A stretch of 64,000 bases of DNA, from assembly GCA_964450885.1 (NCBI GenBank), contig CAYVFE010000001.1:502572-566571 (forward strand). The letters run 5' to 3'. The notes beneath the pieces were generated by a model. That model did no database searches. It had not been told where the DNA came from and worked only from the letters and a program-made list of their open reading frames with translations. This document shows, piece after piece, positions 44 to 54,171 of this stretch (positions are counted from its first letter, which is position 1; each line of letters opens with the position of its first letter). The translations under genes were made by a program, and so were the position numbers. This DNA is from an uncultured Gammaproteobacteria bacterium (GTDB taxonomy: Bacteria > Patescibacteriota > Microgenomatia > Levybacterales > GWA1-39-11).

Positions 44-955
44 GTGACAATCATTTGTGAGAAGCATGATAAGAGTCTTAAAAATATTGAGACCATAGAT
101 GGAATCAGAGTGATCCGTATTCCGATCTCCCATTCGGAAAGGAATAAGAAATTTGAGATTTGGAAATGGATTTTAAAAAACAGAGAACTAATAGATAGTT
201 TTGATGTAATCCATATCCACGATGTCTTTTTTTGGATTCTGCCATTGGTGTTCACTGTTAGAAGAGGTCATATTTATATGACATTTCATGGATACGAGGG
301 GTATCCTGTAAGATTCGGAAGTAAAATTCAGAAGAAAATAGCTGATATGTATAGCTCGGGAACTATTACTATAGGAGATTTTATTAATAAATGGTATGGT
401 TTGAAGTCTGATGCGGTAATATATGGAGGAGTTTTTAACATCAAAACAGGTTCAAATCGTCCAAAAAACCCTCTTTCCGCTATTTTTTTCGGAAGATTCG
501 AACCTCTTACAGGAATAGATCAATATTATAAAGCATACAAAATACTTAAGAATAGACATAAGACATTTGAATTTGAGGCTATCGGTAAAGGAAGGTATAG
601 GGATAAGTTAGAGGATATCTCTATTACACCATTTAAGTCAAAAATTACAGATCAGATTCAAAATAGCCGATTTATTTTTGTTTCAGGGTATCTTTCCATG
701 CTTGAGGCGATGATTCAAAAAAGACTTGTGATTGCAGTATATAATAATCCTCTAAAAAAAGATTATCTTTTGGATTCTCCCTTTAGAAAGTATGTGGATA
801 TATGTAGTTCGGGAAATGATATTGCAGAAAAGATTGAATTTTATATTAAAAATCCTAAAGAAGAGGAGAAGAAGATAGATAAAGCTTATTTATGGGCAAA
901 AGAGCAGACTTGGGAAAAGGTTGTCGATACGTACATCAATCTATGGCAAATATAA
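44..955 (+). CDS. GT-B fold glycosyltransferase (GT4/GT1-clan-like). No in-frame stop lies between base 2 and the GTG at 44, so the gene may be truncated at the 5-prime end by the window edge.
   Basis: C-terminal motifs typical of retaining GT-B enzymes: FFGRFEPLTGID..KAY (GRxxxxKG-like), EAIGKG, and the E-x7-E region LSMLEAMIQKRLVIA. The stop overlaps the next gene. Confidence 0.6.
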   Translation: MTIICEKHDKSLKNIETIDGIRVIRIPISHSERNKKFEIWKWILKNRELIDSFDVIHIHDVFFWILPLVFTVRRGHIYMTFHGYEGYPVRFGSKIQKKIADMYSSGTITIGDFINKWYGLKSDAVIYGGVFNIKTGSNRPKNPLSAIFFGRFEPLTGIDQYYKAYKILKNRHKTFEFEAIGKGRYRDKLEDISITPFKSKITDQIQNSRFIFVSGYLSMLEAMIQKRLVIAVYNNPLKKDYLLDSPFRKYVDICSSGNDIAEKIEFYIKNPKEEEKKIDKAYLWAKEQTWEKVVDTYINLWQI

Positions 956-3504
956 AAAAATCCCTGATAGTTACTGTCTATAACGAAGAGTCGTCAATAA
1001 ACTCTTTATTAGATTCGATATATACACAATCAGAATTTCCACACGAGTTGGTAATTGTGGATGGTGGATCTTTAGATAAAACCTTTGAGCTTATAAAAAA
1101 ACACAAGTTAGCTAGTAAAATTAAAGTCAAGGTTCTTGAAAAAAAAGGGAATATTGCAAAAGGACGTAATTTTGCTATAGAGAATGCAACTGGAGAGGTA
1201 ATTGCGATAACTGATGCTGGATGCAGATTAGATAAAAAATGGTTTGAGAATATCACGCGTCCATTCAGCGATAAAAAAATAGATATAGTAGCAGGGTATT
1301 ACAGAGGAAATCCAAAAAGTAATTTTCAAAAGGCCTTAGTGCCTTATGTATTGGTTATGCCAGAAAAAATCAATGAGAGTGAATTTCTACCCTCCGCACG
1401 TTCGATGGCAATGAGAAGAGGCGTATGGAAAAGACTTGGGGGTTTTTCGGAAAAACTTAATCAATCAGAAGACTATGACTTTGCAAGACGAGCAAAAAAT
1501 ATATTTAATATAAAATTTGTAAGAAAAGCTATTGTTTCATGGAGTCCTAGAGAAAGTATATTTTCGGCATATAAAATGTTTTATAAGTATGCATATGGTG
1601 ATATAAAGGCGGGAATTTTGAGACCTAGGGTTGTTGGAATGTTTGCGAGATATTTGTTTGCTGTTCTGTCAATTCTTGCTGCGAGGTTTGTGTCATTCGA
1701 ACTTCCGTATTATCTCAGTGGACTTTATTTACTAACATATGGATTCTGGTCGATCCATAAAAATTATAAATATGTCCGAGATAAATCAGCAGTGCTTTAT
1801 CTTCCGATGATCCAGATAGTGTCTGATATAGCAGTTATGGGCGGATCATTGTCCTCAGCCCTGGTACGTATAGCTAATTTTTTAGTAGTTTTTGCAAAAA
1901 AAGAAAGGAGCACTTTTCTGGCGATTTTGCTATTTATAGTTCTGACGTTAAGTATTATTAAATGGGGACTTCCTAGTAGTAGTCATCCATTCATATATCA
2001 CATGGATGAATGGCATCAGCTCCAATCTATTCGTAATTTATTCATACACCTTTCGCCAAATATGGAAGGGTCCGCGAATGGACCAATTTTTCATTTTGGG
2101 TTGAGCGGGATATATGTAGCGGTTCTTTCTATTTTAGGATTAGTAAATCCGTTTGTTATCAATTCTTCACTAGATAACTTAAATGCGCAAAATTTATTGT
2201 TTGTATATCTACGGTTAAGCACATTATTCTTCTCTTTGGGTGCAGTAGGCTTAATAATTTATATTCTCCGGAAGCAGCTCAAGGTTTCACTGATCGTTTT
2301 GCCAGTTGTTCTCTTCCTATTTTCCCCATCATGGATATCATTAAGTAATTATTTTAAATACGATATAGCTCTTTTGTTCTGGATAATATTATCGATTCTT
2401 TTGATATTCAAATTTTCGACAACGCCTAATTTGAAAAATTATTTACTTGCTGCTCTTCCAGTTGCTTTGGCGATAACTACAAAAATCAGTGCTCTGCCTC
2501 TATTTATAATCTATGTTTTAGCATTTTTTATATATAAGGTGAAACCTCTTAGTAACTTGAGATATCTTTTTCTGGGGACCATCTTATTTTTGACAATCTT
2601 TTTTGTTCTGGGGGTCCCGGACCTATTCTTGGGAACAGGAGACTACCATGAATATTTTTACTCAAATTTAGTCTCTGCCCCTTCGGAGACAGCCAACTAC
2701 AAATTGGGAACGTCATACTGGATCTATCTTTTTACAAATCAAATTCCGGTTCTGTTTGGTCTGTCAATCGTAATCCTCTTTGTCTTTTCGTTGACTTATT
2801 TTACAAAGATAACAATAGCCTCAGGTATAAAAAATATATTTAAAACGAAAAAGAACGAGGTATTTATTCTATCTTCTTTTATCATCTTTGCGGTAAGTCT
2901 TATCCCATTAAAACTTTTTATCGTAAATAGGAGTTTGGTTATTTTGCCGTTTGTCGTTCTATTTATCGGATTAATATTTCAGAAATTTATTGACAATAAT
3001 GCAGATAGAAAAAAGATAGTTCTTTTTATTGTGAGTGTTTTACTAATATTACAGATTGTCCAAGGGTCTTCTTGGATATTCATAAAATATAGTGATCCAA
3101 GAGAGATATCGTCTAAATGGATACTGGAAAATATCGATAAAGGTTCGGAGATAGGGATAGAAAGTGTTCCTATTTATCAATTTCTTCCGGATTTAGTACT
3201 TAAAGAATACTATCAGTCAGAGCGAAATATTGATACAGATATGAATTATAAATATCGGATAATAGACGGTGAAAGTGAGGTCTTGCCGGAATACATAGTT
3301 ATCTCAAATGTTGATATCGCTGCAAGCTATATACATAAATCCCCGAAGAAGAGTTTGATTTTAAGGATGAACAAAGAGGAATACGAAGTCATTAAGGAGT
3401 TTAAATTAAAAAGAGAAATAAATGATTTGTTCGCGACCAGGTTAGATTTTTTCATAAGTCTGCTTTCACCGACACCAAACATCTATATTTATGGTAAACC
3501 TTAA
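943..3504 (+). CDS. Fusion protein: N-terminal GT2 (GT-A fold) glycosyltransferase domain plus a ~600 aa polytopic membrane domain (GT-C / PMT-ArnT-like).
   Basis: GT2 hallmarks: SLIVTVYNEE...LVIVDGGSLDKT...ITDAGCRLD. Residues 250-870 are almost entirely hydrophobic helices. The likely start is the internal Met (MANIKK), which overlaps the upstream gene by 13 nt; the ORF track starts at 892. Confidence 0.65.
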   Translation: MANIKKSLIVTVYNEESSINSLLDSIYTQSEFPHELVIVDGGSLDKTFELIKKHKLASKIKVKVLEKKGNIAKGRNFAIENATGEVIAITDAGCRLDKKWFENITRPFSDKKIDIVAGYYRGNPKSNFQKALVPYVLVMPEKINESEFLPSARSMAMRRGVWKRLGGFSEKLNQSEDYDFARRAKNIFNIKFVRKAIVSWSPRESIFSAYKMFYKYAYGDIKAGILRPRVVGMFARYLFAVLSILAARFVSFELPYYLSGLYLLTYGFWSIHKNYKYVRDKSAVLYLPMIQIVSDIAVMGGSLSSALVRIANFLVVFAKKERSTFLAILLFIVLTLSIIKWGLPSSSHPFIYHMDEWHQLQSIRNLFIHLSPNMEGSANGPIFHFGLSGIYVAVLSILGLVNPFVINSSLDNLNAQNLLFVYLRLSTLFFSLGAVGLIIYILRKQLKVSLIVLPVVLFLFSPSWISLSNYFKYDIALLFWIILSILLIFKFSTTPNLKNYLLAALPVALAITTKISALPLFIIYVLAFFIYKVKPLSNLRYLFLGTILFLTIFFVLGVPDLFLGTGDYHEYFYSNLVSAPSETANYKLGTSYWIYLFTNQIPVLFGLSIVILFVFSLTYFTKITIASGIKNIFKTKKNEVFILSSFIIFAVSLIPLKLFIVNRSLVILPFVVLFIGLIFQKFIDNNADRKKIVLFIVSVLLILQIVQGSSWIFIKYSDPREISSKWILENIDKGSEIGIESVPIYQFLPDLVLKEYYQSERNIDTDMNYKYRIIDGESEVLPEYIVISNVDIAASYIHKSPKKSLILRMNKEEYEVIKEFKLKREINDLFATRLDFFISLLSPTPNIYIYGKP

Positions 3505-3507
3505 TGT

Positions 3508-4731
3508 ATGGGTTATTTCGGACAAACTATTAAAGGCATTTCATGGATAGGGGGGCTAAGAGGAGTGACCCGTGGATTGGCGTTTGTCAGGATTTTGATT
3601 CTGGCTCGGTTGTTGACCCCTTCTCAATTTGGTTTGTTTGGGGTAGCATCTTTTATGCTCGCGCTCGTAGAGGTTTTTACCGAAACAGGTATAAATATTT
3701 TCTTAGTTCAGCGGGAAGGTAAGATAGATAACTATTTAAGCTCTGCGTGGATAATTTCAATTTTTCGTGGATTCATAATTTTTACAGTCATACTCGTAAG
3801 TGCACCATTTGCATCTAGTCTTTTCAATGCGCAGGATGCTCTGGGTCTACTTATTCTTATAGCTTTTGTGCCTTTAGTCAGGGGTTTTATAAATCCAGCA
3901 GTCGTTTTGTATCAGAAGGAGTTGAGCTTTCATAAAGAATTTTATTTTAAGGCAACAGTATTATCATTTGAGGTTGTTGTTTCAGTAATACTAGCCTATC
4001 TACTGCGGTCTCCAGCAGGGCTTATCCTCGGACTTATAGCAAGCGCTATTTTAGAAGTCTTTCTTTCTTTTCTTTTAATAAAATCAAGACCTACATTTAA
4101 ATTTGAAAGAATGCGGTTTGTGGAAGTTTTGCATACTGGTAAGTGGGTTACAATATCAACAATTTTTAATTATTTATACCAGAATGTTGATGATATGGTA
4201 GTTGTGAGATTTTTGAATACCACAAGTCTGGGATTTTACCAAATGGCATACAAGCTTGCGATGCTGCCGATAACAGAGGTTGCAGATGTTGTAGGTAGAG
4301 TAACATTTCCTGTATATGCTAGAATTTCCGGAGATAAAAAGAGACTAAAAAAAGCATTTTATAAGACCATAGCAGCAAATTTAATTCTCTCCTCGCCTGT
4401 AGTTATTGTGTTTATTATATTTCCAAATCAAATAGTTCTATTGATTCTGGGGGAGAAATGGCTAGGTGCCGTGCCTGCATTTCAGGTGTTAGTGTTTTTT
4501 GGACTCGCTAGAGCAGTTACAAGTCCAGCGACGGTATTACTTCTGGCGTTAAAGAGGCAGGATGTTGTCGCAAAAATATCACTTGGCACCTTTTTGTTAA
4601 TGGCCTTGACGATTATTCCTTTTGTCACGATTTGGGGGATTTTTGGAGCAGGTCTCTCATCAGTTTTGGCGTCCGTCATTATGATCCCATTTGCGTATTA
4701 TTTCTCTCTTAGATACTTCTCGGATAAATAG
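3508..4731 (+). CDS. Polysaccharide biosynthesis flippase-like membrane protein (Wzx/MurJ, MOP superfamily).
   Basis: Roughly 12 predicted TM helices. The N-terminal LLTPSQFGLFGVASFMLALVEVFTETGINIFLVQ motif is typical of PST-family flippases. Confidence 0.5.
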   Translation: MGYFGQTIKGISWIGGLRGVTRGLAFVRILILARLLTPSQFGLFGVASFMLALVEVFTETGINIFLVQREGKIDNYLSSAWIISIFRGFIIFTVILVSAPFASSLFNAQDALGLLILIAFVPLVRGFINPAVVLYQKELSFHKEFYFKATVLSFEVVVSVILAYLLRSPAGLILGLIASAILEVFLSFLLIKSRPTFKFERMRFVEVLHTGKWVTISTIFNYLYQNVDDMVVVRFLNTTSLGFYQMAYKLAMLPITEVADVVGRVTFPVYARISGDKKRLKKAFYKTIAANLILSSPVVIVFIIFPNQIVLLILGEKWLGAVPAFQVLVFFGLARAVTSPATVLLLALKRQDVVAKISLGTFLLMALTIIPFVTIWGIFGAGLSSVLASVIMIPFAYYFSLRYFSDK

Positions 4732-4753: not shown

Positions 4754-6181
4754 TTAATTTATTTTTTCTCCCACTATGACTACATATGTAAACAGGTCTT
4801 TAACTCCAAAATGAAATCCTGTCAGCTTGAAGTTTGAGTCTGCCATAATCTTTCTTATTTGAGATTTAGATTTGACTTTGGTTATTTCATGAGGATGGAG
4901 ACGAATATTTTTTTTCAATATGTTGTTGAGCAGAAAGTGTATCGAATTAAGAAAGATTACACTAAGACCAAAATATGGAGGCCAAAAAAGTACGATTTTC
5001 GAGTGTGATTTTAGTACTCTGTTGAATTCATCCAGAGTCTTTCTGATCTCTTTTTTATCCAGGTGCTCCATTACGCCTAGATTGTAGATGCCGTCATATG
5101 TGCTATTTTTTGCTGGAATTTTCATAATACTTCCATGGAGTATTTTGCAATCTTTTCCGTAAAGATGTTTGTATCTGTTTAATGCCTCTGCAGAGATATC
5201 AAGGGCAGTAACATCCATTATTTTTACTATATCGCTATCCACCTGACCACCTCCGCAGCCCGCATGCAGTATTTTTGACTGCATTTTGTAAGTTGATTTT
5301 ATATGCTGATTTAATGCAGGTTTTATAATGAATTTTCTATAAAACACAGCTAAAGTGTCGTAGAAAATTTTTCTTTTGTTTCTATCCATTTTCCAATATG
5401 CATCCCATTCCTTTTCCACGGTGCCTTTTTTTTGATGCGACTTAATACTTGCTGGATGCCAGATATATGAGTCACGGTAAATCTTTGATAGGTATGCAGT
5501 CTGAAATAGGAATTTAAAACTGTACCACGCGTCAGATATTTTCATCTTCGACGACCCGTAGGTTCTGGCAGAAAGTTTTACTGGAACTTCTTTAACCTTA
5601 TACCCGTTAAGAATGAGGATAAACAGGCTTTCAAAAAAAAATGAGTATCCTGTAGACGTTATGAGCTTAAATACCTCTTTGTCCACTTTTTTTAAATTGT
5701 AAAGCCTGAAAGCGCTAGTGGCATCAAAGGGAATGTGAAGAATTTTTTTAGTCAAGAAGTGTCCAGTTATGGCTAGTGTTTTGCGGAATATATTCCAATC
5801 CGAGATTCCATCACTTTTCATATAGCGGGAAGCGATTACTATATCTGATCGGCCCTTTTTATCGATGAGTTTTTTTATAGTTTTTGGGTTATGGGTAAAA
5901 TCTGCATCCATCGTAATAAGGGTCTTGTACCCTTTTTCGTAAGCGTATCTTATTCCATCAGCATGAGCACTTCCGATGCCCAGCTTACTTCCTCTTTTAA
6001 TCAATTTTATATGTGCATCTTTTTTTTGAAGTGCACTAATTTTTTTAGAAGTGCCATCTGGAGAGTTATCGTCGATAAAAAGAATATCTATGCTGGGCAA
6101 ATATTTTTTAATTTTCAAATATAAGGGTTGAATATTTTCTACTTCTTTGTAGGTGGGAATAAGTACCAGAGTATTGTTCAT
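4754..6181 (-). CDS. Fusion protein: GT2 polyprenyl-phosphate sugar synthase-like domain (DPM1/ArnC-like) plus a C-terminal class I SAM-dependent methyltransferase.
   Basis: N-terminus: LVLIPTYKEVENI...LFIDDNSPDGT...TMDADFTHNP, a DPM1-like DxD region. C-terminus: LHAGCGGGQVDSD...ALDIS...LHGSIMKIP...DGIYNLGVMEHL, Rossmann MT motifs I-III. Confidence 0.65.
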   Translation of the reverse strand: MNNTLVLIPTYKEVENIQPLYLKIKKYLPSIDILFIDDNSPDGTSKKISALQKKDAHIKLIKRGSKLGIGSAHADGIRYAYEKGYKTLITMDADFTHNPKTIKKLIDKKGRSDIVIASRYMKSDGISDWNIFRKTLAITGHFLTKKILHIPFDATSAFRLYNLKKVDKEVFKLITSTGYSFFFESLFILILNGYKVKEVPVKLSARTYGSSKMKISDAWYSFKFLFQTAYLSKIYRDSYIWHPASIKSHQKKGTVEKEWDAYWKMDRNKRKIFYDTLAVFYRKFIIKPALNQHIKSTYKMQSKILHAGCGGGQVDSDIVKIMDVTALDISAEALNRYKHLYGKDCKILHGSIMKIPAKNSTYDGIYNLGVMEHLDKKEIRKTLDEFNRVLKSHSKIVLFWPPYFGLSVIFLNSIHFLLNNILKKNIRLHPHEITKVKSKSQIRKIMADSNFKLTGFHFGVKDLFTYVVIVGEKIN

Positions 6182-6271: not shown

Positions 6272-7516
6272 TCATACAATTTCCAGCGCCGGCAAAGGAA
6301 AAATGAAATGTCCTCCCGATTTTAGGTAATCTTTTTCACGTTGCAAAAATTCTTCTTTAAAGAACCATGGAAGTACTAGCATATAGTCTGGTTGTTCTTT
6401 TCTTGCTTGATCTTCCGAGATAATGGGGATGCCTACAGAAGCAATATTTGTTCCCCATTTTTCGGGATTCCTTTCGACGGCCTTATCAATAAGCTTGTTA
6501 TCCAGATCGAAATATTGAAGTAGTGTATTTCCACGGGTTGACGCACCGTAAATATAAATCTTCTTTCCATTCTCGTGTTCCCTTTTTATAAATTCATAAA
6601 CGTCTTTTTTAATTGATTTTATTCTTTTTGCAAAGTCTGTGTATATTTTTTGCCTTTTTAAATTTATAAGACTTTCGAGCTGCAGCTGCTCACGAACATA
6701 ATTTGTTATTGGAAACTTATCCTTTTTGCAAATATATGTTCTAAAGCTCCCTCCATTAAGGTCTCTTAATTCCAAATCAAATACTTCTAAGCCATGTTGG
6801 CCTAACAGGTTTTGAAGAGAGGTTAAAGAATAGTACTCTAGGTGCTCATGAACTATATTATCGAATGCGTTTTGAGTAAGCATTTTAACGAGATAGTTTT
6901 GCTGTATTACAAAAACCCCATCATCTTTTAATATTTTGATTACATCAGACACAAATTTATTTGGGTGCTCCATATCATAGAAACATGAAATCGCTGTTAC
7001 TATGTCTGCTTTATTATTGACTAAAAAAGGACTAACTGATTCATAATTAAAAAAATCCGACACAACTGCATTGGCGTGTTTTTTACTATACTTTGCAAAT
7101 TTCTTTATGGGGTCAACAGCTAGTCTATAGTAGCCTTTAGGATAATTTGAAAGCAACGTTCCATCGTTTGCGCCAATATCAACCACTGTAAGTTTTTCTT
7201 TCTTCCCTGCGATTTTTAGGGTTTTTCTGACTACATCAGATAACTCGTCTTGCATCGTCTTGTTTATTCCGGATTTATAACCATAATTTTCGCTATAAAG
7301 TAGAGAAGTTGGGGCATTGTGTTTTAGTTGCAGGAGATGGCAGTCTTTGCAAAAGATTAGTTTTAAGGGAAAGCTTTGAGGCTTTTTATTGCTTTTGGTG
7401 AATTCAGAAAGATACAATTTGCCTAAATTTAGGATGGTTGAAAGATTTTGCGATTTGCAGGACCTACAGTATCTGATCGATATATCTTTACTTTTCATCA
7501 ATTTTAATATCGTCAA
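6272..7516 (-). CDS. SAM-dependent methyltransferase with an N-terminal Cys4 zinc ribbon (domain layout of NDP-hexose C-methyltransferases such as TylCIII).
   Basis: CRSCKSQNL...CKDCHLLQL, then VVDIGANDGTLL (motif I), then a C-terminal alpha/beta extension. Confidence 0.55.
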   Translation of the reverse strand: MTILKLMKSKDISIRYCRSCKSQNLSTILNLGKLYLSEFTKSNKKPQSFPLKLIFCKDCHLLQLKHNAPTSLLYSENYGYKSGINKTMQDELSDVVRKTLKIAGKKEKLTVVDIGANDGTLLSNYPKGYYRLAVDPIKKFAKYSKKHANAVVSDFFNYESVSPFLVNNKADIVTAISCFYDMEHPNKFVSDVIKILKDDGVFVIQQNYLVKMLTQNAFDNIVHEHLEYYSLTSLQNLLGQHGLEVFDLELRDLNGGSFRTYICKKDKFPITNYVREQLQLESLINLKRQKIYTDFAKRIKSIKKDVYEFIKREHENGKKIYIYGASTRGNTLLQYFDLDNKLIDKAVERNPEKWGTNIASVGIPIISEDQARKEQPDYMLVLPWFFKEEFLQREKDYLKSGGHFIFPLPALEIV

Positions 7517-7609: not shown

Positions 7610-9148
7610 ATGAAATATAAATATATTGTTATTATTCTAATCTTTTGTTTTTCTCTATTCATAAGGCTGGCGACTTTAAATCAGATCGGAAGAACATGGG
7701 ATGAGCCTCAGTTCATAGAAGAGGGATATAGAATGGTGGAATTATTTAAAGCAGGGGATTTAAATAATAGTTTTTTTTATACGACTTACGATCACCCGCC
7801 ACTTATCAAATACATATTTGGAATTACATCGTATCTTGATATAAAAGAAACGAAACCGAATGGCGATGTTATTTTTAATTATGATTACACTTATTCTAGA
7901 ATATTATCTGCGACTCTCTTTTCTATAGGCGTGGTAATGACGGTGCTTTTGGGGTGGAGACTGTTTTCACCATTTGTGGGGGGTATTTCAGGTGTTATTC
8001 TGGCTATGCTGCCATTTTCTGTTGGTCTTTCGCAATTAATCAGTGCGGAGAGTTTGAAGATATTTATCTATCCTATTGCAATTTATTCAATTTTGTTGCT
8101 TGTTGAAAAGTTTTCATTAAAAAGAGCTATAGTTGTTGGGTTAATAATAGGCATCGCTCTTCAAGTCAAACAGTCAAACGGTTTACTGTTCCTGGTGCTC
8201 GTGGGCATGCTGATAATTAGATACTTTAGTTTAGGTAAAAAGAAAAGGCTAGGATACATTAAGAGTAGGATTGCTGGATTTTTTGTAGTAGTAGTCGGCA
8301 GTATGCTTTCCTTTATAGCGCTGTGGCCTCAAGCGATATTCAATTTGGACAAGATTTATAAGATTCATGACAAATTTTGGGGTGTTGAATTTTCTCCAAA
8401 ACCATGGCTTATTACGATGTCTGTACCCGAAGTTTTCTTTGGAAGACTGATCATAACGCCGAATTTTTATTATCTTGTCTATTTTTTCATAAGTACACCA
8501 GTGGTTATTTTAGCCCTGTTTTTTGTAGGTATTTGGAAGATAGTAATGTCAAAAAACTGGAAGCTTTATATTCTGATTATTTGGTTTTGTGTTCCTTTTC
8601 TCCTATCTCTTTATTCATGGAGACAGCATGGGCTTCGATATCTTATTGAAATTTATCCAGCCTTAGCGCTTATTTCCGCTATAGGATTTGATTCTTTGGC
8701 CAGTAGGCTTACTACCAGCCTTCGCAATAAAGCGTTGATATTTGGACTAGTTATTATTTATCTTTTCGCATCTCTTTTATACGTGAAACCATATTATTTA
8801 GAGTACTATAATGAATTAGTGGGGGGTACAGGTAATGTTTACAGGAATAACTGGTTTCAAATAGGCTGGTGGGGACAGGGATTAAGAGAGGCTGGTCTAT
8901 ATATAATCAACAATTCTGAAAATGATTCTGAGATAGGGCTTGCTATTTCTCCCGATCATGTTTTGCCCCGTTCTGAAAATTTAATTTACTCAGATTTTGT
9001 GGAATCCAAAAATTATGATTATGTAATAGTAAATCATTATCACATTATCCGTGATGGATTTGATGATAGCAGCATAAGGGCTGATTATAATTTAATTTAT
9101 CAGGTCAAAGCTGATGGGGCAACACTGGTCTATATATATAAGAAATGA
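7610..9148 (+). CDS. GT-C fold polyprenyl-phosphate-sugar-dependent membrane glycosyltransferase (PMT/ArnT, GT39/GT83-like).
   Basis: Multiple TM helices. The first extracytoplasmic loop carries the conserved acidic motif RTWDEPQF..EEGY...YDHPPL, characteristic of PMT/ArnT/Stt3-type GT-C enzymes. Confidence 0.55.
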   Translation: MKYKYIVIILIFCFSLFIRLATLNQIGRTWDEPQFIEEGYRMVELFKAGDLNNSFFYTTYDHPPLIKYIFGITSYLDIKETKPNGDVIFNYDYTYSRILSATLFSIGVVMTVLLGWRLFSPFVGGISGVILAMLPFSVGLSQLISAESLKIFIYPIAIYSILLLVEKFSLKRAIVVGLIIGIALQVKQSNGLLFLVLVGMLIIRYFSLGKKKRLGYIKSRIAGFFVVVVGSMLSFIALWPQAIFNLDKIYKIHDKFWGVEFSPKPWLITMSVPEVFFGRLIITPNFYYLVYFFISTPVVILALFFVGIWKIVMSKNWKLYILIIWFCVPFLLSLYSWRQHGLRYLIEIYPALALISAIGFDSLASRLTTSLRNKALIFGLVIIYLFASLLYVKPYYLEYYNELVGGTGNVYRNNWFQIGWWGQGLREAGLYIINNSENDSEIGLAISPDHVLPRSENLIYSDFVESKNYDYVIVNHYHIIRDGFDDSSIRADYNLIYQVKADGATLVYIYKK

Positions 9149-11340
9149 ATAAAAAAATATCGGTAATAATAGTTCACTACAACGTTAAAAAAGAGTTATT
9201 CGATTGCATAGAGTCTATTTATAAATCTAAACCGAGAGTAGATTTTGAAATAATTGTAGTGGATAACGACGAAGTAAAAATAATCGAAAAAGATTTGAGG
9301 AAAAAATTCTCAAAAGTAATTTATATCAAGAATAAAAATAACGGTTGGGGTGGAGGAGCCAACAAGGGGGTTAAGTATGCAAAAGGAGAATATCTCTATT
9401 TCTTAAATCCAGATACGATTTTTATGAACAATGCGCTTGATGCAATATATGATTTTGTCAAAAGAAAAAAAGATATAGGAATAGCATCGTCACTTTTATT
9501 TGACGAAGAAAAAAAAGTCTATCCACTCCAAGGTACAAAACTATTGAATCCTTTGAATGCAATATTCTCGCTTTCTTTCATAAATAAGTTTTTTCCGAAC
9601 AATCCGATATCAAAAAGATTCTGGATGAGAGGGAGAAGTAAAAAAGATATTTCAGAAGTTGAATCTTCCACGCTCAGTGCAGCTCTTATAAAAAAAGAAG
9701 TCTTTATAGAGGCTGGGAAGTTTGATGAGAACTACTTTTTGTATTATGAAGAATATGATCTCAGCAAAAGATTAAAGAGAATAGGATACAAGAATTTTAT
9801 AGTTCCTAGTTCGAAGGTTATTCATATATGGGAGGCAAGCGCCATAAAAACAGGAAGAACGAAAGAATTTATGGATAATAGCCGAAAGTACTACTTCAAG
9901 AAATATTATGGTTCTATATTAGGTAATCTAATCGAACTGGTTCTCGGACTTAATAAAAAAAATCTGCTTGTGTATTTATTTTTGTTGGGAATATTTTCGA
10001 TAGGAGCATATCTGCGGCTGAGCGCCTTGGATAAATATGTGCCATTCATCGGAGACCAGGCCTGGTTTTATTTATCGGCGCGAGACTTTATATTAACAGG
10101 TGAAATCCCTCTTTTGGGGATCACTTCTAGTCACACCTGGATACACCAAGGTGCGCTATGGACTTATTTACTAACTCCCGCTCTTTTTCTCTCGAGTTAC
10201 AATCCTATTTCGGGATTTTACCTTTCATCGCTGTTGGGAATATTAACAGTAGCTGTATCCTATAAGCTCGCTAGAGATTTTTTTTCAAGAACGTTTGGAC
10301 TAATATTTGCAGCTCTTATTGCCGTATCTCCTCTTGTAGTATTCCATTCAAGGTTTGCATATCACACAACACCAATACCTTTATTCGTTATCTTGTTATT
10401 TTATTCGATGAGTAAGTGGTTAAAGGGGAGTGTTAACTATTTTCCTATTGTACTTTTTTCAATGAATGTTCTTTATAACTTAGAGCTTGCTACAGTGATA
10501 TTCTGGCCAGTTATCATAGCGTATCTGTTATATGGATTCACAAGAAAGAAAGAATATGCATTAGGTTTAGTTAGAAAAAATATAGTATTTTGGTCTTTGT
10601 TGGCTTTGGTAATTCCAATGGTGCCAGTTCTAGTTCATGACTTGAAAAGCGGATTTCCTCAAACAGTAGTCTTTGGAGGATGGTTTGGATATAAACTGCT
10701 GCAATTTGTGGGTATTATTGAGAAAAGCGCGGTTGATGAGAGCTCAATTAGACTCGCTGTTAATTTTTTTATTGAAAAGCACAATCAGCTCTTTTTTACT
10801 TTTAATCAATACATATCTTTTGGAGTGTTTTTAGTAGCCATGGTAATTTCCTTTACAGTGTCTTTAAAAAGATCTTTGTTGTCCAATTTTGGAATAGTTT
10901 TCATGCTAACTTTCATGGGACTTTTGGCATACTTTATGTCAGGCGTACCCTCAGAAGCATATTTAGTTATGCTTTTTCCCGGACTGTTATTTATCCTGGC
11001 GTTTGCTATTTACCAACTTAGAAATAGAGTTCTAATCTCCATTGTGATGATGATTATTTTTGCTACAAATATTTATTATTTAATAACAACTAATTACCTT
11101 ACTATAGATACTGTTACTTTATCAGAAAAAATTTCTGCCTCTAAGGAGATTTTGGAACTAACAAACAGTAACGAATTAAATCTGATCTACAAAGGGTCTG
11201 GTGAGGAGTTTCAAAGCAGTAGAATGCCTTATGAATATCTAGTATGGTGGAGAAGTGGAATGAATCTATCTGAGGCGGGGAGAAAAGTATTGGTTACAGA
11301 GCAGGGAGGTAATATAATTATTAGTAGAATAAATGAGTAA
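9145..11340 (+). CDS. Fusion protein: N-terminal GT2 domain plus a C-terminal ~470 aa polytopic membrane (GT-C-like) domain.
   Basis: ISVIIVHYNVKKEL...IIVVDNDE...YFLNPDT (GT2), then about 12 TM helices. It overlaps the upstream gene by 4 nt. Confidence 0.65.
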   Translation: MNKKISVIIVHYNVKKELFDCIESIYKSKPRVDFEIIVVDNDEVKIIEKDLRKKFSKVIYIKNKNNGWGGGANKGVKYAKGEYLYFLNPDTIFMNNALDAIYDFVKRKKDIGIASSLLFDEEKKVYPLQGTKLLNPLNAIFSLSFINKFFPNNPISKRFWMRGRSKKDISEVESSTLSAALIKKEVFIEAGKFDENYFLYYEEYDLSKRLKRIGYKNFIVPSSKVIHIWEASAIKTGRTKEFMDNSRKYYFKKYYGSILGNLIELVLGLNKKNLLVYLFLLGIFSIGAYLRLSALDKYVPFIGDQAWFYLSARDFILTGEIPLLGITSSHTWIHQGALWTYLLTPALFLSSYNPISGFYLSSLLGILTVAVSYKLARDFFSRTFGLIFAALIAVSPLVVFHSRFAYHTTPIPLFVILLFYSMSKWLKGSVNYFPIVLFSMNVLYNLELATVIFWPVIIAYLLYGFTRKKEYALGLVRKNIVFWSLLALVIPMVPVLVHDLKSGFPQTVVFGGWFGYKLLQFVGIIEKSAVDESSIRLAVNFFIEKHNQLFFTFNQYISFGVFLVAMVISFTVSLKRSLLSNFGIVFMLTFMGLLAYFMSGVPSEAYLVMLFPGLLFILAFAIYQLRNRVLISIVMMIIFATNIYYLITTNYLTIDTVTLSEKISASKEILELTNSNELNLIYKGSGEEFQSSRMPYEYLVWWRSGMNLSEAGRKVLVTEQGGNIIISRINE

Positions 11341-12079
11341 GTTAACTGTCGTTATTATTACAAAAAATGAAGAATCAAATATAGATTCTTGTCTCAAGCA
11401 ATTAGTCTTTGCAGACGAAATAATATTGATTGATGATAATTCAACAGATAAAACTTTAGAGATTGCAAAAAAATATAAAGTAAAAGTTATTAGCAATAAA
11501 TTGTCTTCGTTTTCGCATCAAAGAAATTTAGCATTGGAGAGAGCATCAAATAGTTGGGTGCTATTTATTGATGCAGATGAAACAATAGATGAAAAGTTGA
11601 GAGAAGAGATTTTAGAAAGAATATCGGAAGAGACATACGATGGTTACTACATAAAACGAAAAGATATATTTTTAGGATACGAAATGAAGTATGGAGACTT
11701 AGAGGATGTACGGATTTTGCGACTTGGAAGAAAAAATAGCGGAATGTGGGAAGGAGATGTGCATGAAAAGTGGAGAATCAAGGGTAAAACATCAAATTTA
11801 AAAAATTCGCTAGGTCATCATTCTCACCAGAACCTGTTTCACTTTATAGATAAAATTAATTACTACTCGTCGATAAGAGCAAATGAATTAAAGCAAGGCA
11901 ATATAAAATCTTCTTTTCTGACGATTGCTCTTTATCCGATGTTTAAATTTGTAATACTATATTTTTCGAAAATGGGATTTAGAGATGGACTGCCGGGATT
12001 TATTCATGCACTTTTTATGAGTATGTATTCATTTTTAGTTCGTGGGAAGTTATATCTGCTATACAAGGATGAAAAGTAA
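11333..12079 (+). CDS. GT2 family glycosyltransferase (WaaE/KdtX-like small GT2).
   Basis: LTVVIITKNEESNI...ILIDDNSTDKT...LFIDADE. There is a C-terminal amphipathic/TM segment. The gene overlaps the upstream gene by 8 nt. Confidence 0.7.
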   Translation: MSKLTVVIITKNEESNIDSCLKQLVFADEIILIDDNSTDKTLEIAKKYKVKVISNKLSSFSHQRNLALERASNSWVLFIDADETIDEKLREEILERISEETYDGYYIKRKDIFLGYEMKYGDLEDVRILRLGRKNSGMWEGDVHEKWRIKGKTSNLKNSLGHHSHQNLFHFIDKINYYSSIRANELKQGNIKSSFLTIALYPMFKFVILYFSKMGFRDGLPGFIHALFMSMYSFLVRGKLYLLYKDEK

Positions 12080-12139: not shown

Positions 12140-13705
12140 ATGCAGGGTAGATTACTGTTTTTATTTGCCACTTTAATCGGATTATTTTCATATTCTGTTT
12201 TGGTGTTGGGATTGCTGGGTTCTATAAATAAAATCTCTGTTTTGTTTGTTACCATAGTGTTTTTTGGCATAATCTTTTATTCTTTTTTTAAACATCCGGA
12301 ATCTGTAAAAAGTCTATTTGTACAAGCTAAAAAAAATCTTTTTTATTTTTCTATACTTTTTGGTCTGGCACTGATCAATTTTGTTGGAATGTTAGGTCCT
12401 GAGCTGGGATTTGATGCTCTTTGGTATCATCTTGTTATCCCCAAGTTGTATGTAGCCAGTGGTGCGATTGAATTCATCCCCAACGGTCTACTTTACTATT
12501 CTGTAATGCCAAAGCTTATTGATATTTTATATATACCCGCCTTAATGTTTTCAGACGAGACTACAGCAAAATTTATACATTTTCTATTTGGTCTTTTAGC
12601 GACCATAGGAACTTATAAAATAGCAAATTTATTTTTAGATAAAAAGCTTTCTTATCTTGCAGCTGTGATATTCTATTCAAATCTGGTTGTAGGATGGCTG
12701 TCGATAACTGCTTATATAGACCTTGGTCGAACCTTTTTCGCAACGCTTTCGATTTATTTTTTTCTTCAATACTTTAAGTTAAGAGAGCCCAAATACTTAT
12801 TTGCGTCATCGATATTAGTTGGTCTTGAAATTAGTACTAAGCTATTGGGATTTTCGACACTAATTTCCCTATTCATCGTGCTTTTGATTTTTTCAACAAA
12901 AGCAACGATAGGTGACAAAATCAAGAATGGGTTATTATTCCTTGTTATCCCCATACTAATTAACGCTATCTGGTTCATCTTTGCCTATGTAAATACAGGG
13001 AACGCTTTTTATCCTTTCTTTTCTGAAATCTATCCATCAAAAATTCTAGCTTCAAGCATTAGCCCTATCATCATGAAAGATACTCTCGATTTATTTTTAT
13101 TCTCAGCTGATCCAATATCACCTATATATTTAATTGTTACACCGCTTTTGATCTTAATGTATAAGAAAATGTCCTATGAGATTAAGATAATTTGCGCTAT
13201 TTTGGTGATAAACCTTCTAATATGGAATTTCATACCGCAAAAGAACTCAAGATTTTTTCTACCATATTTACCTTTATTTTCAGCACTTGTTGTTTGGGTT
13301 ATAAGTGTATCAAGGGAGAGAATAAAAAAGACCTTATTAGTGGTAGTTTATTTAACAATAATTGTAAATTTAGTATATCGAGGTGTAGCTAATTTTAAAT
13401 ATTTACCGGTGATTTTAGGTTTGCAAACAAAAGAAGAGTTTTTGGTTAAGTATCTAAATTTTGACTATGGAGACTATATAGATGTTGGTAGTAGCGTAAA
13501 AAAAATTGTGGGAGAAAACAGGGTTCTGGTAAAAAATATCCACAATCTGTATTATGTAGATTTCCCCTTTGACCACGAGTCGTGGGAAAGAAAAATCAAT
13601 TATAAGTACATTTTAATTAGAGGTAATCTGAACAACAAAAAAGGATATAATCTAGTATATAGCGATCCAATAACGAATACGTATCTTTATGAGTCAGATA
13701 AATAG
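12140..13705 (+). CDS. Polytopic membrane protein, GT-C-like (ArnT/PMT-like).
   Basis: At least 12 TM helices and a periplasmic-loop aromatic/acidic motif (FDALWYH). No soluble catalytic domain is present. Confidence 0.4.
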   Translation: MQGRLLFLFATLIGLFSYSVLVLGLLGSINKISVLFVTIVFFGIIFYSFFKHPESVKSLFVQAKKNLFYFSILFGLALINFVGMLGPELGFDALWYHLVIPKLYVASGAIEFIPNGLLYYSVMPKLIDILYIPALMFSDETTAKFIHFLFGLLATIGTYKIANLFLDKKLSYLAAVIFYSNLVVGWLSITAYIDLGRTFFATLSIYFFLQYFKLREPKYLFASSILVGLEISTKLLGFSTLISLFIVLLIFSTKATIGDKIKNGLLFLVIPILINAIWFIFAYVNTGNAFYPFFSEIYPSKILASSISPIIMKDTLDLFLFSADPISPIYLIVTPLLILMYKKMSYEIKIICAILVINLLIWNFIPQKNSRFFLPYLPLFSALVVWVISVSRERIKKTLLVVVYLTIIVNLVYRGVANFKYLPVILGLQTKEEFLVKYLNFDYGDYIDVGSSVKKIVGENRVLVKNIHNLYYVDFPFDHESWERKINYKYILIRGNLNNKKGYNLVYSDPITNTYLYESDK

Positions 13706-14909
13706 AACTGCTTTTATACTATACATAGCCCTGACATGTTTTTTTCCATTAGGTGTTCTTGTTCGATTTACTCCAGTTGTAAACTTCAATATTTATCCAC
13801 AGGACGTTATAGTATGTGGAATTTTTCTACTAACTCTTTTTTCTTATTTTAAGAATAAGAAAAAGCACTACAAAACGCTTTTTTACTCAATCACAATTTT
13901 TAATGTGATAGCCATCCTTTCCTTAGTTATTAACATTTTCCGGCTAGATCAAAATGAACTATTTGTTTCCTTTTCTTATTTAATAAGATTGGATGCATAT
14001 ATTTCGTTGTTGTTTATAGGTTTATTTGGTTTTAGTAAATATAGAACAAGGATTTTAGGAAAATTATTCATGATTGCATCGTGTTTATTTATTATTTTTG
14101 GTTTTGCTCAATACTTTTTTTATAATAACTTGCGGAACTTGTATTACTTAGGTTGGGACGAGCATTTGTACAGACTTTTTTCTACATTTTTAGATCCTAA
14201 TTTTGCTGGAGTTCTTTTCGTTCTTATCGCATTGGTTTTTCTGGGAAAGATATTGGATAAGAATTCCCATAGCGCGGCGAGCCTAATGGTAGATATAGCC
14301 TTGATTATAGCTTCGGTTCTTGCAATTATTCTTACCTATTCTCGAACTGCACTAATAGCGCTTTTTGCGAGCGGACTCTTTTTTCTTACAATAAGAAGAA
14401 AAATTAAACTTTTAGTTATCTCGGTAGTAGTTTTGTTGACAGTAGCATTCTTAGTATCAGATTTTTCAGTCGAAGGAATGAATCCAATAAGAATAGCCTC
14501 ATCGGAAGCAAGAATACATTCAATGAATGAGGCGGTAGATATATTTACAGACAGTCCAATTTACGGAATAGGCTTTAATGCCTATAGATATTATCAGCAA
14601 GATAAAGGATTTAGAAAGGACACGCTATCTATTTCGAGCAATGCAGATGCCGGGACAGACAACAGTTTTCTTTTCATCTTAGCAACGACCGGAATCATTG
14701 GATTTATTGCTTATTTGAATATCTGGTTCGTAGTCTTAAAAAAGATAAGCAAAAAAGGCCCTGAAAAAAGTTATGTTTCTTATGCGATAATTATTGCACT
14801 ATTTACCGGGAGTTTATTTGTGAATGCTTTGTTCTATGCTCCTATAATGTTGTGGGTATTTTTATATTTAGGAAGACAGATAGATCCGGATGACAACTAT
14901 TCTTTGTAG
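13689..14909 (+). CDS. O-antigen ligase / polymerase family (WaaL/Wzy_C) membrane protein.
   Basis: Polytopic. It has a large periplasmic loop with a conserved R/H and the IYGIGFNAY (GxGxGxF-like) motif typical of the Wzy_C domain. Overlaps the upstream gene by 17 nt. Confidence 0.55.
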   Translation: MSQINRTAFILYIALTCFFPLGVLVRFTPVVNFNIYPQDVIVCGIFLLTLFSYFKNKKKHYKTLFYSITIFNVIAILSLVINIFRLDQNELFVSFSYLIRLDAYISLLFIGLFGFSKYRTRILGKLFMIASCLFIIFGFAQYFFYNNLRNLYYLGWDEHLYRLFSTFLDPNFAGVLFVLIALVFLGKILDKNSHSAASLMVDIALIIASVLAIILTYSRTALIALFASGLFFLTIRRKIKLLVISVVVLLTVAFLVSDFSVEGMNPIRIASSEARIHSMNEAVDIFTDSPIYGIGFNAYRYYQQDKGFRKDTLSISSNADAGTDNSFLFILATTGIIGFIAYLNIWFVVLKKISKKGPEKSYVSYAIIIALFTGSLFVNALFYAPIMLWVFLYLGRQIDPDDNYSL

Positions 14910-34141: not shown

Positions 34142-34215
34142 GGGGTGGTAGCTCAGTTGGCTAGAGCGCTTCCCTGTCACGGAAGAGGTCGCGGGTCCGA
34201 GTCCCGTCCATCCCG
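34142..34215 (+). tRNA. tRNA-Asp (GTC).
   Basis: Hand-folded cloverleaf: acceptor GGGGTGG/CCATCCC, anticodon stem CTTCC/GGAAG with loop CTGTCAC, T-loop TCCGAGT, discriminator G. CCA is not encoded. Confidence 0.85.
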
Positions 34216-35124: not shown

Positions 35125-35196
35125 GCGAGGGTAGTTCAGCGGTAGAATGTCTCCTTCCCAAGGAGAAGGTCGCGGGTTCAATTCCCGTCCCTCGCT
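35125..35196 (+). tRNA. tRNA-Gly (CCC).
   Basis: Acceptor GCGAGGG/CCCTCGC, anticodon stem TCTCC/GGAGA with loop TTCCCAA, T-arm GCGGG-TTCAATT-CCCGT, discriminator U. CCA is not encoded. Confidence 0.8.
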
Positions 35197-53027: not shown

Positions 53028-53100
53028 TGAGCCGACTGGGACTCGAACCCAGAACCAAAAGCTTAAAAGGCTTTTGCTCTGCCAATTGAGCTATCGGCCC
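53028..53100 (-). tRNA. tRNA-Lys (TTT).
   Basis: Reverse complement folds: acceptor GGGCCGA/TCGGCTC, D-arm GCTC..GAGC, anticodon stem AAAGC/GCTTT with loop CTTTTAA, T-arm CTGGG-TTCGAGT-CCCAG, discriminator A. CCA is not encoded. Confidence 0.8.
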
Positions 53101-54097: not shown

Positions 54098-54171
54098 GGC
54101 CCCATCGTCTAGCGGCCTAGGACGTCGGGCTTTCATCCCGAAAATCGCGGGTTCGATTCCCGCTGGGGTCA
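54098..54171 (+). tRNA. tRNA-Glu (TTC).
   Basis: Acceptor GGCCCCA/TGGGGTC, D-stem GTCT/GGAC, anticodon stem TCGGG/CCCGA with loop CTTTCAT, T-arm GCGGG-TTCGATT-CCCGC, discriminator A. Confidence 0.8.

Follow-up and report, generated by a model that had tools for sequence, protein, structure and literature searches.

A fused glycosyltransferase–methyltransferase that may load a methylated, branched deoxyhexose onto polyprenyl phosphate

Which sugar is handled by a protein that joins a lipid-sugar synthase to a methyltransferase in one polypeptide, and at what stage would that sugar be methylated? The question is raised by a gene in a stretch of 64,000 nucleotides from contig CAYVFE010000001.1 (hereafter the window), for which a reading of the sequence alone (the original prediction) had proposed a DPM1-like family 2 glycosyltransferase (GT2) fused to a class I S-adenosylmethionine (SAM)-dependent methyltransferase. 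Both halves of that description are borne out: the gene is a single open reading frame (ORF) encoding 475 residues, in which a search with domain profiles detects GT2 (PF00535) at residues 6–163 (E = 9e-23) and a class I methyltransferase (PF13649/PF08241) at residues 304–397 (E = 2e-13 and 3e-13). Here we propose, with moderate confidence and from comparison of sequences, that the fusion charges the lipid carrier in an extracytoplasmic glycosylation system of three components, and that its product is a polyprenyl-phosphate-linked, C-methyl-branched and O-methylated deoxyhexose.

An artefact of assembly or sequencing (a frameshift), or a pseudogene, was also considered; nothing was found in its favour, and split, two-gene versions exist in other lineages. 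The junction between the domains (residues 236–257) is one continuous reading frame, and the identical protein is recorded in four sources (NCBI, JGI, Logan and ENA), on a contig of 588 kb, and seen on three contigs. More than 120 full-length fused homologues exist; the best 120 cover 98–100% of the query at 46–72% identity, are nearly all 470–540 residues long and all carry both the GT2 and the methyltransferase Pfam domains. In an alignment of 23 members, the two domains are equally conserved (mean pairwise identity of 54% for GT2 and 55% for the methyltransferase), with the linker at 18%. The AlphaFold2 (AF2) model contains two confidently predicted domains (mean predicted local distance difference test (pLDDT) score of 87, predicted template modelling score of 0.77) joined by a linker of lower pLDDT. 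Fused homologues, identical records, equal conservation and the confident model thus exclude a frameshift, and we regard an artefact as having negligible probability.

The GT2 domain most resembles enzymes that charge lipid carriers. Its closest sequence of solved structure is the dolichyl-phosphate mannose synthase (DPMS) of Pyrococcus furiosus (PfDPMS, 5mlz; E = 1e-22 over residues 5–220), and the top Foldseek matches are DPMS, GtrB and ArnC, all of which charge polyprenyl phosphate. Homologues of this half on plasmids carry the annotation polyprenol monophosphomannose synthase, which agrees with this assignment. We transferred the functional residues of PfDPMS (PMC5526996) by alignment and then checked them across 64 relatives. 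Residues E13, D38, D92, D94, H97, R119, R133, R206 and K212 (E12, D39, D89, D91, H94, R117, R131, R202 and K208 in PfDPMS) are invariant. In PfDPMS, Glu12 locks the A-loop, to which Arg202 and Lys208 belong, Asp39 touches the guanine, and Arg117 and Arg131 bind the acceptor phosphate (PMC5526996). The domain has a GT-A fold with a DADxxH-type DxD motif, which lies within the segment TMDADFTHNP that the original prediction had picked out, together with the A-loop Arg/Lys pair and the Glu lock.

The sugar pocket, by contrast, departs from that of a mannose synthase in the whole family. PfDPMS Gln93, which contacts the metal, and Lys178, which contacts mannose O4/O5 and the phosphoester (PMC5526996), are replaced in all 64 relatives, the former by Thr/Ser (residue 96; Thr in the window protein) and the latter by Ser/Ala (residue 180). 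We conclude from this conservation pattern that the domain is probably a polyprenyl-phosphate glycosyltransferase with an altered sugar pocket and not a mannose synthase; because both residues are replaced throughout, filing the family as mannose synthases is unwarranted. Database entries are nevertheless named ‘glycosyltransferase’ or ‘dolichol-phosphate mannosyltransferase’. In an NCBIfam search of the fusion protein, every match fell far below its curated cut-off, and no curated equivalog was found.

The window protein lacks a transmembrane (TM) domain. In the AF2 model, helices at residues 131–148 and 215–234 occupy the positions of the interface helices (IFH) of DPMS, with modest hydrophobic moments. 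Removal of the TM domain from PfDPMS leaves a catalytic domain that still reaches the membrane and matches the wild type in activity, and human DPM1 likewise has no TM helices (PMC5526996), so their absence here need be no obstacle to lipid charging. These points bear on an alternative in which the GT2 domain would extend a cytoplasmic glycan and the methyltransferase would end the chain by capping its last sugar, as in WsaE, WbdD or A064R. Known glycosyltransferase–methyltransferase fusions do work in this way, the protein has no TM helices, and the surrounding island encodes other proteins of glycan assembly (GT4, GT2, Wzx and Wzy_C). However, the closest matches by sequence and by fold are without exception polyprenyl-phosphate glycosyltransferases, the A-loop and the arginines for the acceptor phosphate do not vary, and the TM-less DPMS catalytic domain is active on dolichyl phosphate (PMC5526996). 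The GtrA, EamA and GT-C neighbours described below fit a lipid-monosaccharide donor system, and no ABC transporter or coiled-coil ruler was seen beside the gene in the window. We consider chain capping distinctly unlikely.

The second half of the protein has the hallmarks of a class I methyltransferase: a glycine-rich motif I, an acidic residue (D328) after strand 2 and, in the AF2 model, an alternating strand/helix core. About 50 residues are invariant, among them W259, Y262, W263, Y274, D275, Y281, H306, G308, G310, G312 and D328, as are the motifs LHAGCGxGQVD (motif I), YNLGVMEH and FWPP; the statement that the SAM-binding motifs are intact thus holds. The invariance of the SAM motifs and of the aromatic residues suggests that the enzyme works and has a defined pocket. 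The domain begins with two aromatic-rich helices and contains a hydrophobic helix insert (residues 403–437). Residues 396–421, in and after strand 5, form the most hydrophobic stretch of the whole protein and a lower-confidence helix in the model; it could, as a conjecture, be a lid or a membrane-facing element. Foldseek matches of the domain are generic (among them ChlM, AtmM, MitM, METTL6 and a geranyl-diphosphate methyltransferase). When the domain alone was compared with 1.84 billion cluster representatives, 87 matches were found at E ≤ 1e-30 and 245 at E ≤ 1e-10; the best 150 comprise 57 stand-alone proteins (up to 260 residues), at least 22 fusions and, for the remainder, fragments. Given so few matches, fused or stand-alone, the domain defines a small, dedicated family tied to the GT2 clade of the fusion.

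Relatives of the fusion are widespread. With each GTDB species represented by one genome, a scan located them in at least 597 stretches, and we analysed the best 80 of these together with the window, using our own ORF calling and BLASTP clustering of the neighbouring genes. By their database labels, the best 80 come from metagenome-assembled genomes (MAGs) of Bdellovibrionota, Omnitrophota, Planctomycetota, Acidobacteriota, Chloroflexota, Verrucomicrobiota, Nitrospirota, Bacteroidota, Myxococcota, Armatimonadota and several proteobacterial classes; Methanoregula is also among them, as is a single isolate, Bradyrhizobium lablabi SZCCT0009. A close homologue carries the name ‘Patescibacteria group bacterium’, which, with the low G+C content and the 588-kb contig, suggests that the window probably has a Patescibacteria-like origin. 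The architecture is thus no rarity and occurs in hundreds of species and many phyla. In plasmid and phage collections, the GT2 half alone was matched, at about 30–33% identity, and no fused homologue was found; the fusion is no obvious seroconversion module of a phage.

The two halves are fused in 39 of the 49 related loci that hold both, as well as in the window, and are separate, adjacent ORFs in the other ten (six Bacteroidota, one Coxiellaceae, Bradyrhizobium and two Methanoregula). Each of the split genes has a start codon of its own, in many cases overlapping the stop codon before it, and in Methanoregula the two genes converge; the stand-alone methyltransferase begins with a conserved (Q)EWDxYW helix right after the position of the linker. 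Because the halves are adjacent separate genes in several lineages and fused in others, this arrangement points to their functional coupling. Longer fusions also exist: one protein (P0100, 774 residues) adds a second methyltransferase, and another (P0129, 857 residues) a short-chain dehydrogenase/reductase (SDR) domain of the epimerase/dehydratase type. Conversely, three loci (L050, L054 and L055) have versions of the cassette that lack the methyltransferase, so methylation looks like an optional tailoring step.

These comparisons also bear on what the methyltransferase would modify. It might act on another lipid, on the final acceptor or on a protein, or it might be a structural or membrane module that replaces the TM domain of DPMS. 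It indeed occupies the slot in which type III DPMS carries its TM domain and holds the most hydrophobic segment of the protein, its matches among solved structures are confined to a generic SAM core, and the GT2-only cassettes do without it. Against this, the invariance of the SAM-binding residues and of many residues of the putative substrate pocket speaks for catalysis; the family is small and fused or adjacent to the GT2 clade of the fusion; and its presence in a three-part fusion with an SDR sugar enzyme connects it with sugar chemistry. We judge these other roles quite unlikely. In WsaE of Geobacillus stearothermophilus (PMC2943079) and A064R of chlorovirus PBCV-1 (PMC7826918), each a glycosyltransferase and a SAM-dependent methyltransferase in one polypeptide, the methyltransferase 2-O-methylates the sugar that the fused glycosyltransferase has added; by analogy, we favour a methyltransferase that would act on the sugar handled by the GT2 domain.

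An indication of which sugar this might be comes from the neighbouring genes. Directly upstream of the fusion gene on the same strand, with a gap of 90 nucleotides, lies a gene that the original prediction had described as a second methyltransferase with a Zn-ribbon. The ribbon (PF08421) and the methyltransferase core are indeed present; what had been missed is the identity of the protein as a 3-C-methyltransferase, given by its C-terminal domain (PF08484) and by full-length matches to MtmC (4rv9; E = 8e-49, residues 14–413), to TcaB9 and to the KijD1-type ‘sugar 3-C-methyl transferase’ 5t64. The gene is 63% identical to its syntenic counterpart in the closest GTDB relative (L001), in which the GT4 gene is syntenic too. 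A homologue of this C-methyltransferase (about 415 residues) lies within 6 kb of the GT2–methyltransferase in 36 of the 50 loci that hold both halves, and a gene of the GDP-mannose 4,6-dehydratase (GMD) family (about 316 residues) does so in 28 of the 50. The order C-methyltransferase, GMD-like protein, GT2–methyltransferase recurs across phyla.

The GMD-like protein matches PF16363 (E = 5e-62), and its best solved match is the GMD of Pseudomonas aeruginosa (E = 3e-51). All copies directly upstream of the GT2 gene have FYAASS[H/L][I/V]FG where GMD has YQAS(S/T)SE: the dehydratase Glu is gone, with His or Leu in its place, and the Ser and YxxxK are retained. From this motif we presume that the Glu-less proteins are enzymes of the ketoreductase or epimerase type. 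Members of this subfamily (300–330 residues; for example L020 9028–9996, L064 8997–9992 and L058 9019–9993) always stand between an upstream C-methyltransferase and a downstream DPM1-like GT2 gene. At least 12 loci have a canonical GMD (SSE/TSE motif) nearby as a further gene. In Dependentiae and Babeliales MAGs, relatives that consist of GT2 only and share the pocket substitutions adjoin genes for GMD and a GDP-fucose-synthase-like protein (GMER).

A simpler product has to be weighed here, namely that GDP-mannose or UDP-glucose serves the GT2 domain as donor for ordinary polyprenyl-phosphate mannose or glucose and that the methyltransferase O-methylates it (for example, at position 3 or 6), independently of the C-methyltransferase. 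The DPM1-type motif and catalytic residues would suit such an enzyme, the window lacks GMD and reductase genes for a deoxy sugar, and about a quarter of the loci have no C-methyltransferase nearby. This product, the plain 3-O- or 6-O-methyl hexose of the original prediction, is nonetheless unlikely: Lys178 and Gln93 are replaced family-wide, the partners are a 3-C-methyltransferase, directly upstream in the window and close by in most loci, and enzymes of the GMD family, and relatives without the methyltransferase share both the substitutions and a GMD/GMER neighbourhood. The analogy that had been drawn with the mycobacterial methylmannose and methylglucose polysaccharides (MMP and MGLP) found no sequence support in the fusion gene. 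Because of the partner enzymes and the two replaced residues, the sugar is probably a C-methyl-branched deoxyhexose and not mannose.

In the pathway that we propose, a nucleotide-activated 4-keto-6-deoxy sugar would be C-methylated by the neighbouring enzyme and then reduced; in most relatives, the route would start from GDP-mannose and proceed through GMD and the reductase-type GMD-like paralogue. The fusion would be a bifunctional enzyme at the cytoplasmic face of the membrane, held there by its two putative interface helices. Its GT2 domain would move one sugar from the nucleotide sugar to polyprenyl phosphate, and its methyltransferase domain would methylate the same sugar with SAM, most likely at a hydroxyl. 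Methylation might take place on the nucleotide sugar before transfer or, as we slightly favour, on the lipid-linked product before flipping; because SAM is cytoplasmic, it would in any case have to precede flipping. The methylated lipid-linked sugar would then be flipped, and GT-C glycosyltransferases would place it on a surface glycan or protein. More tentatively, and with some doubt, we extend this to a pathway in more than ten bacterial phyla, including Patescibacteria-like genomes and, in split form, in Methanoregula: a deoxyhexose bearing both C-methyl and O-methyl groups would be delivered on polyprenyl phosphate, the fused methyltransferase would act on the lipid-linked monosaccharide at the membrane interface, and the cassette would include a GMD-derived enzyme without dehydratase chemistry.

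Several observations weigh against this proposal. The first concerns the acceptor site. PfDPMS Ser135 positions the acceptor phosphate and its S135A variant loses activity (PMC5526996); the equivalent residue is Thr in 49 of 50 relatives, but Ala (Ala137, nucleotides 5771–5773) in the window protein. Ala is also found at this position in the close homologues P0002 and P0005, and a Thr two residues further on might compensate. The second concerns the sugar. Across all 64 kb of the window, a tblastn search found no GMD-like or other SDR sugar-nucleotide gene, including those of the FnlA/RmlD type, so the full cassette cannot be claimed for the organism of the window. Near the fusion gene of the closest GTDB relative, the SDR genes belong to the FnlA/RmlD/2-epimerase type (UDP-N-acetylhexosamine, UDP-HexNAc) and not to the GMD type. 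No C-methyltransferase is close by in about a quarter of the loci, and different lineages may therefore use different sugars. Third, when a profile of the methyltransferase domain was compared with all Protein Data Bank sequences, the SAM core alone was aligned, mostly with structural-genomics proteins of unassigned function; with matches restricted to this generic core, the substrate cannot be read from homology. Fourth, a large polytopic protein lies within three genes of the fusion in 35 of the 50 loci, an enrichment that is statistically weak because such proteins are common there, and a small flippase dedicated to the system adjoins the gene in only a few loci, so that it is no general feature; the window has a Wzx-type protein instead. 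Finally, a literature search on the fusion, on C-methyl sugars on lipid carriers and on vinelose and evalose pathways returned no paper on the family.

Tailoring of a lipid-linked monosaccharide before its use is familiar from ArnD, which deformylates one. It is also seen as lipid-linked epimerisation in pentofuranose systems (Kelly et al. 2024, PMC11127046). The fusion shares with these and other three-component systems (GtrA/GtrB/GtrC; ArnC/ArnE-F/ArnT; pentofuranose systems, PMC11127046) a GT2 synthase with GT-C neighbours and, in some loci, GtrA or an EamA pair. It differs in that the tailoring enzyme is a methyltransferase fused to the synthase, the donor is apparently C-methyl-branched and a small flippase is usually not adjacent. 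With DPMS (PfDPMS, DPM1 and bacterial Ppm1), it shares the GT-A fold, the DADxxH motif, the A-loop Arg/Lys and the acceptor-phosphate arginines, and it has two predicted helices in the positions of the interface helices. Unlike these enzymes, it has neither a TM domain nor a motif for a partner subunit, the catalytic domain is followed by a methyltransferase, Thr/Ser and Ser/Ala replace Gln93 and Lys178, and the gene context suggests a branched deoxyhexose.

WsaE and A064R resemble the fusion by domain layout, as a glycosyltransferase and a SAM-dependent methyltransferase in a single polypeptide; however, they elongate and cap oligosaccharides with rhamnose, whereas the glycosyltransferase domain here is of the lipid-phosphate-charging type. 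For the C-methylation step, the upstream protein matches MtmC, TcaB9 and KijD1 over its full length, and, as in the GDP-virenose route proposed in silico for Coxiella (PMC3539893), related loci combine a C-methyltransferase with genes of the GMD family. Those pathways feed Leloir glycosyltransferases for antibiotics or O-antigen, whereas the carrier here is apparently polyprenyl phosphate, and they differ from the present loci, in which the GMD-like paralogue lacks the dehydratase Glu. AglP of Haloferax volcanii, a SAM-dependent methyltransferase in dolichol-phosphate-based glycosylation (PMC3871713), is likened to the fused domain by its described role; unlike that domain, it is a separate protein and acts in the assembly of the N-glycan oligosaccharide, not on a monosaccharide donor.

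Glycosyltransferase–methyltransferase fusions and lipid-carrier sugar synthases with associated tailoring are thus already known, and no concept is overturned. What seems new is the GT2–methyltransferase combination, with its probable branched, methylated donor, its dedicated methyltransferase family and the GMD-like paralogue. If the proposal is right, a branched deoxyhexose that is methylated and carried on polyprenyl phosphate would represent a new class of lipid-linked donor; if, in addition, the fused domain acts on the lipid-linked sugar, this would be the first polyprenyl-phosphate monosaccharide donor to be methylated by a domain fused to its synthase. The compact cassette (C-methyltransferase, GMD-like protein and GT2–methyltransferase) would then predict such surface sugars in many uncultured lineages and serve as a genomic marker for rare branched or methylated sugars, in place of the labels that current pipelines assign (‘glycosyltransferase’ or, wrongly, ‘dolichol-phosphate mannosyltransferase’). 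The model would also offer a testable function for the dedicated methyltransferase family and for the Glu-less GMD paralogue, and the enzymes of the cassette could serve glycoengineering.

In the window, the fusion gene sits in a surface-glycan island (Table 1).

Table 1 Features of the fusion gene and its surroundings in the window (positions are those of the window)
Feature	Position	Strand	Basis or remark
GT4 gene	44-955		Pfam
GT2 + GT-C (PMT-like) polytopic fusion	892-3504	+	PF00535 + PF02366; 12 hydrophobic segments
Wzx-type (MOP) polysaccharide flippase-like protein	3508-4731	+	PF13440, E = 2e-66; convergent with the fusion gene
GT2–methyltransferase fusion gene, complete	4754-6181	-	Single ATG-to-stop ORF, 475 residues + stop codon
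Class I SAM-dependent methyltransferase domain, residues 258–475	4757-5410	-	Pfam and invariant residues
SAM-binding motif I ILHAGCGGGQVD, residues 304–315	5237-5272	-	Motif search
Inter-domain linker, residues 236–257	5411-5476	-	Variable; sequence RDSYIWHPASIKSHQKKGTVEK
GT2 domain, residues 1–235	5477-6181	-	Catalytic domain of a DPM1/Ppm1-type polyprenyl-phosphate glycosyltransferase
TMDADFTHNP, residues 90–99	5885-5914	-	DPMS-type DxD metal/donor motif (DADLQH in PfDPMS)
NDP-sugar 3-C-methyltransferase	6272-7516	-	PF08421 Zn-ribbon, PF13489 methyltransferase core, PF08484 C-terminal domain
PMT_2-like GT-C membrane protein	7610-9148	+	PF13231, E = 6e-5, below the curated cut-off; 10 hydrophobic segments
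GT2 + PMT_2-like GT-C fusion (weak PMT_2 match)	9145-11340	+	Pfam; 8 hydrophobic segments
GT2 gene	11333-12079		Pfam
PMT_2 GT-C membrane protein	12140-13705	+	PF13231, E = 7e-9, above the cut-off
Wzy_C protein	13689-14909		Pfam

The GT-C component expected of a three-component system is present, with four proteins of the PMT/PMT_2 type within 9 kb. The first of these is a candidate user of the polyprenyl-phosphate sugar, and the Wzx-type protein may take part in the same pathway. Two of the four (870 and 731 residues) combine an N-terminal cytoplasmic GT2 domain with a polytopic GT-C part, so that in such GT2–PMT fusions a lipid-linked sugar could be made and used by one polypeptide. Among the related loci, ten polytopic neighbours were searched against Pfam: two are PMT_2 proteins (one with tetratricopeptide repeats (TPR)), one bears TPR, one has a weak YfhO match and one is a DUF7657 protein; the other five gave no significant match (one with negligible matches, E > 0.05). 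Small flippases stand next to the gene in four loci, as GtrA in L019 and L050 (directly downstream) and as an EamA pair in L057 and L058. These last two are the Methanoregula loci (L057 6700–9500; L058 10900–13500), in which the split genes are followed by two ArnE/ArnF-like EamA half-transporters (110–150 residues) and by a polytopic protein of 439 residues that weakly matches GT87; a methanogen would thus have all the parts of a three-component system. A promoter and terminator scan around the fusion and C-methyltransferase genes found sites no more often than in shuffled sequence.

Some loci carry further sugar-modifying genes. In the closest GTDB relative (L001 1108–8158), a second module beside the fusion gene encodes a small methyltransferase, a second C-methyltransferase, an RmlD-like reductase, a UDP-GlcNAc 2-epimerase-like protein, a GT2-only DPM1-like protein and an FnlA/CapE-like dehydratase, which points to another lipid-carried C-methyl sugar, derived from HexNAc. 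In the locus of a small-genome relative (L082 2200–4391, encoding P0013), the genes near the fusion are not a C-methyltransferase but an SDR epimerase and a transketolase-like protein split in two (PF00456 and PF02779); a branched sugar might be reached by another route there. A further methyltransferase of about 300 residues, with a Cys-rich, Zn-ribbon-like N terminus and PF13489, is found near the fusion gene in six loci (L014, L016, L026, L027 (9309–10211), L046 and L047), directly downstream of it in some, and a PF13489-type domain is the one fused behind the GT2–methyltransferase in P0100; both hint at a second methylation.

The three closest GTDB matches (L001–L003; 50–56% identity) carry the label ‘uncultured Gammaproteobacteria’. 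In gene content and synteny, however, they resemble the window and Patescibacteria-like homologues, and the labels may be wrong. An Rfam scan of the window identified four tRNAs only, at 34142–34215, 35125–35196, 53028–53100 and 54098–54171.

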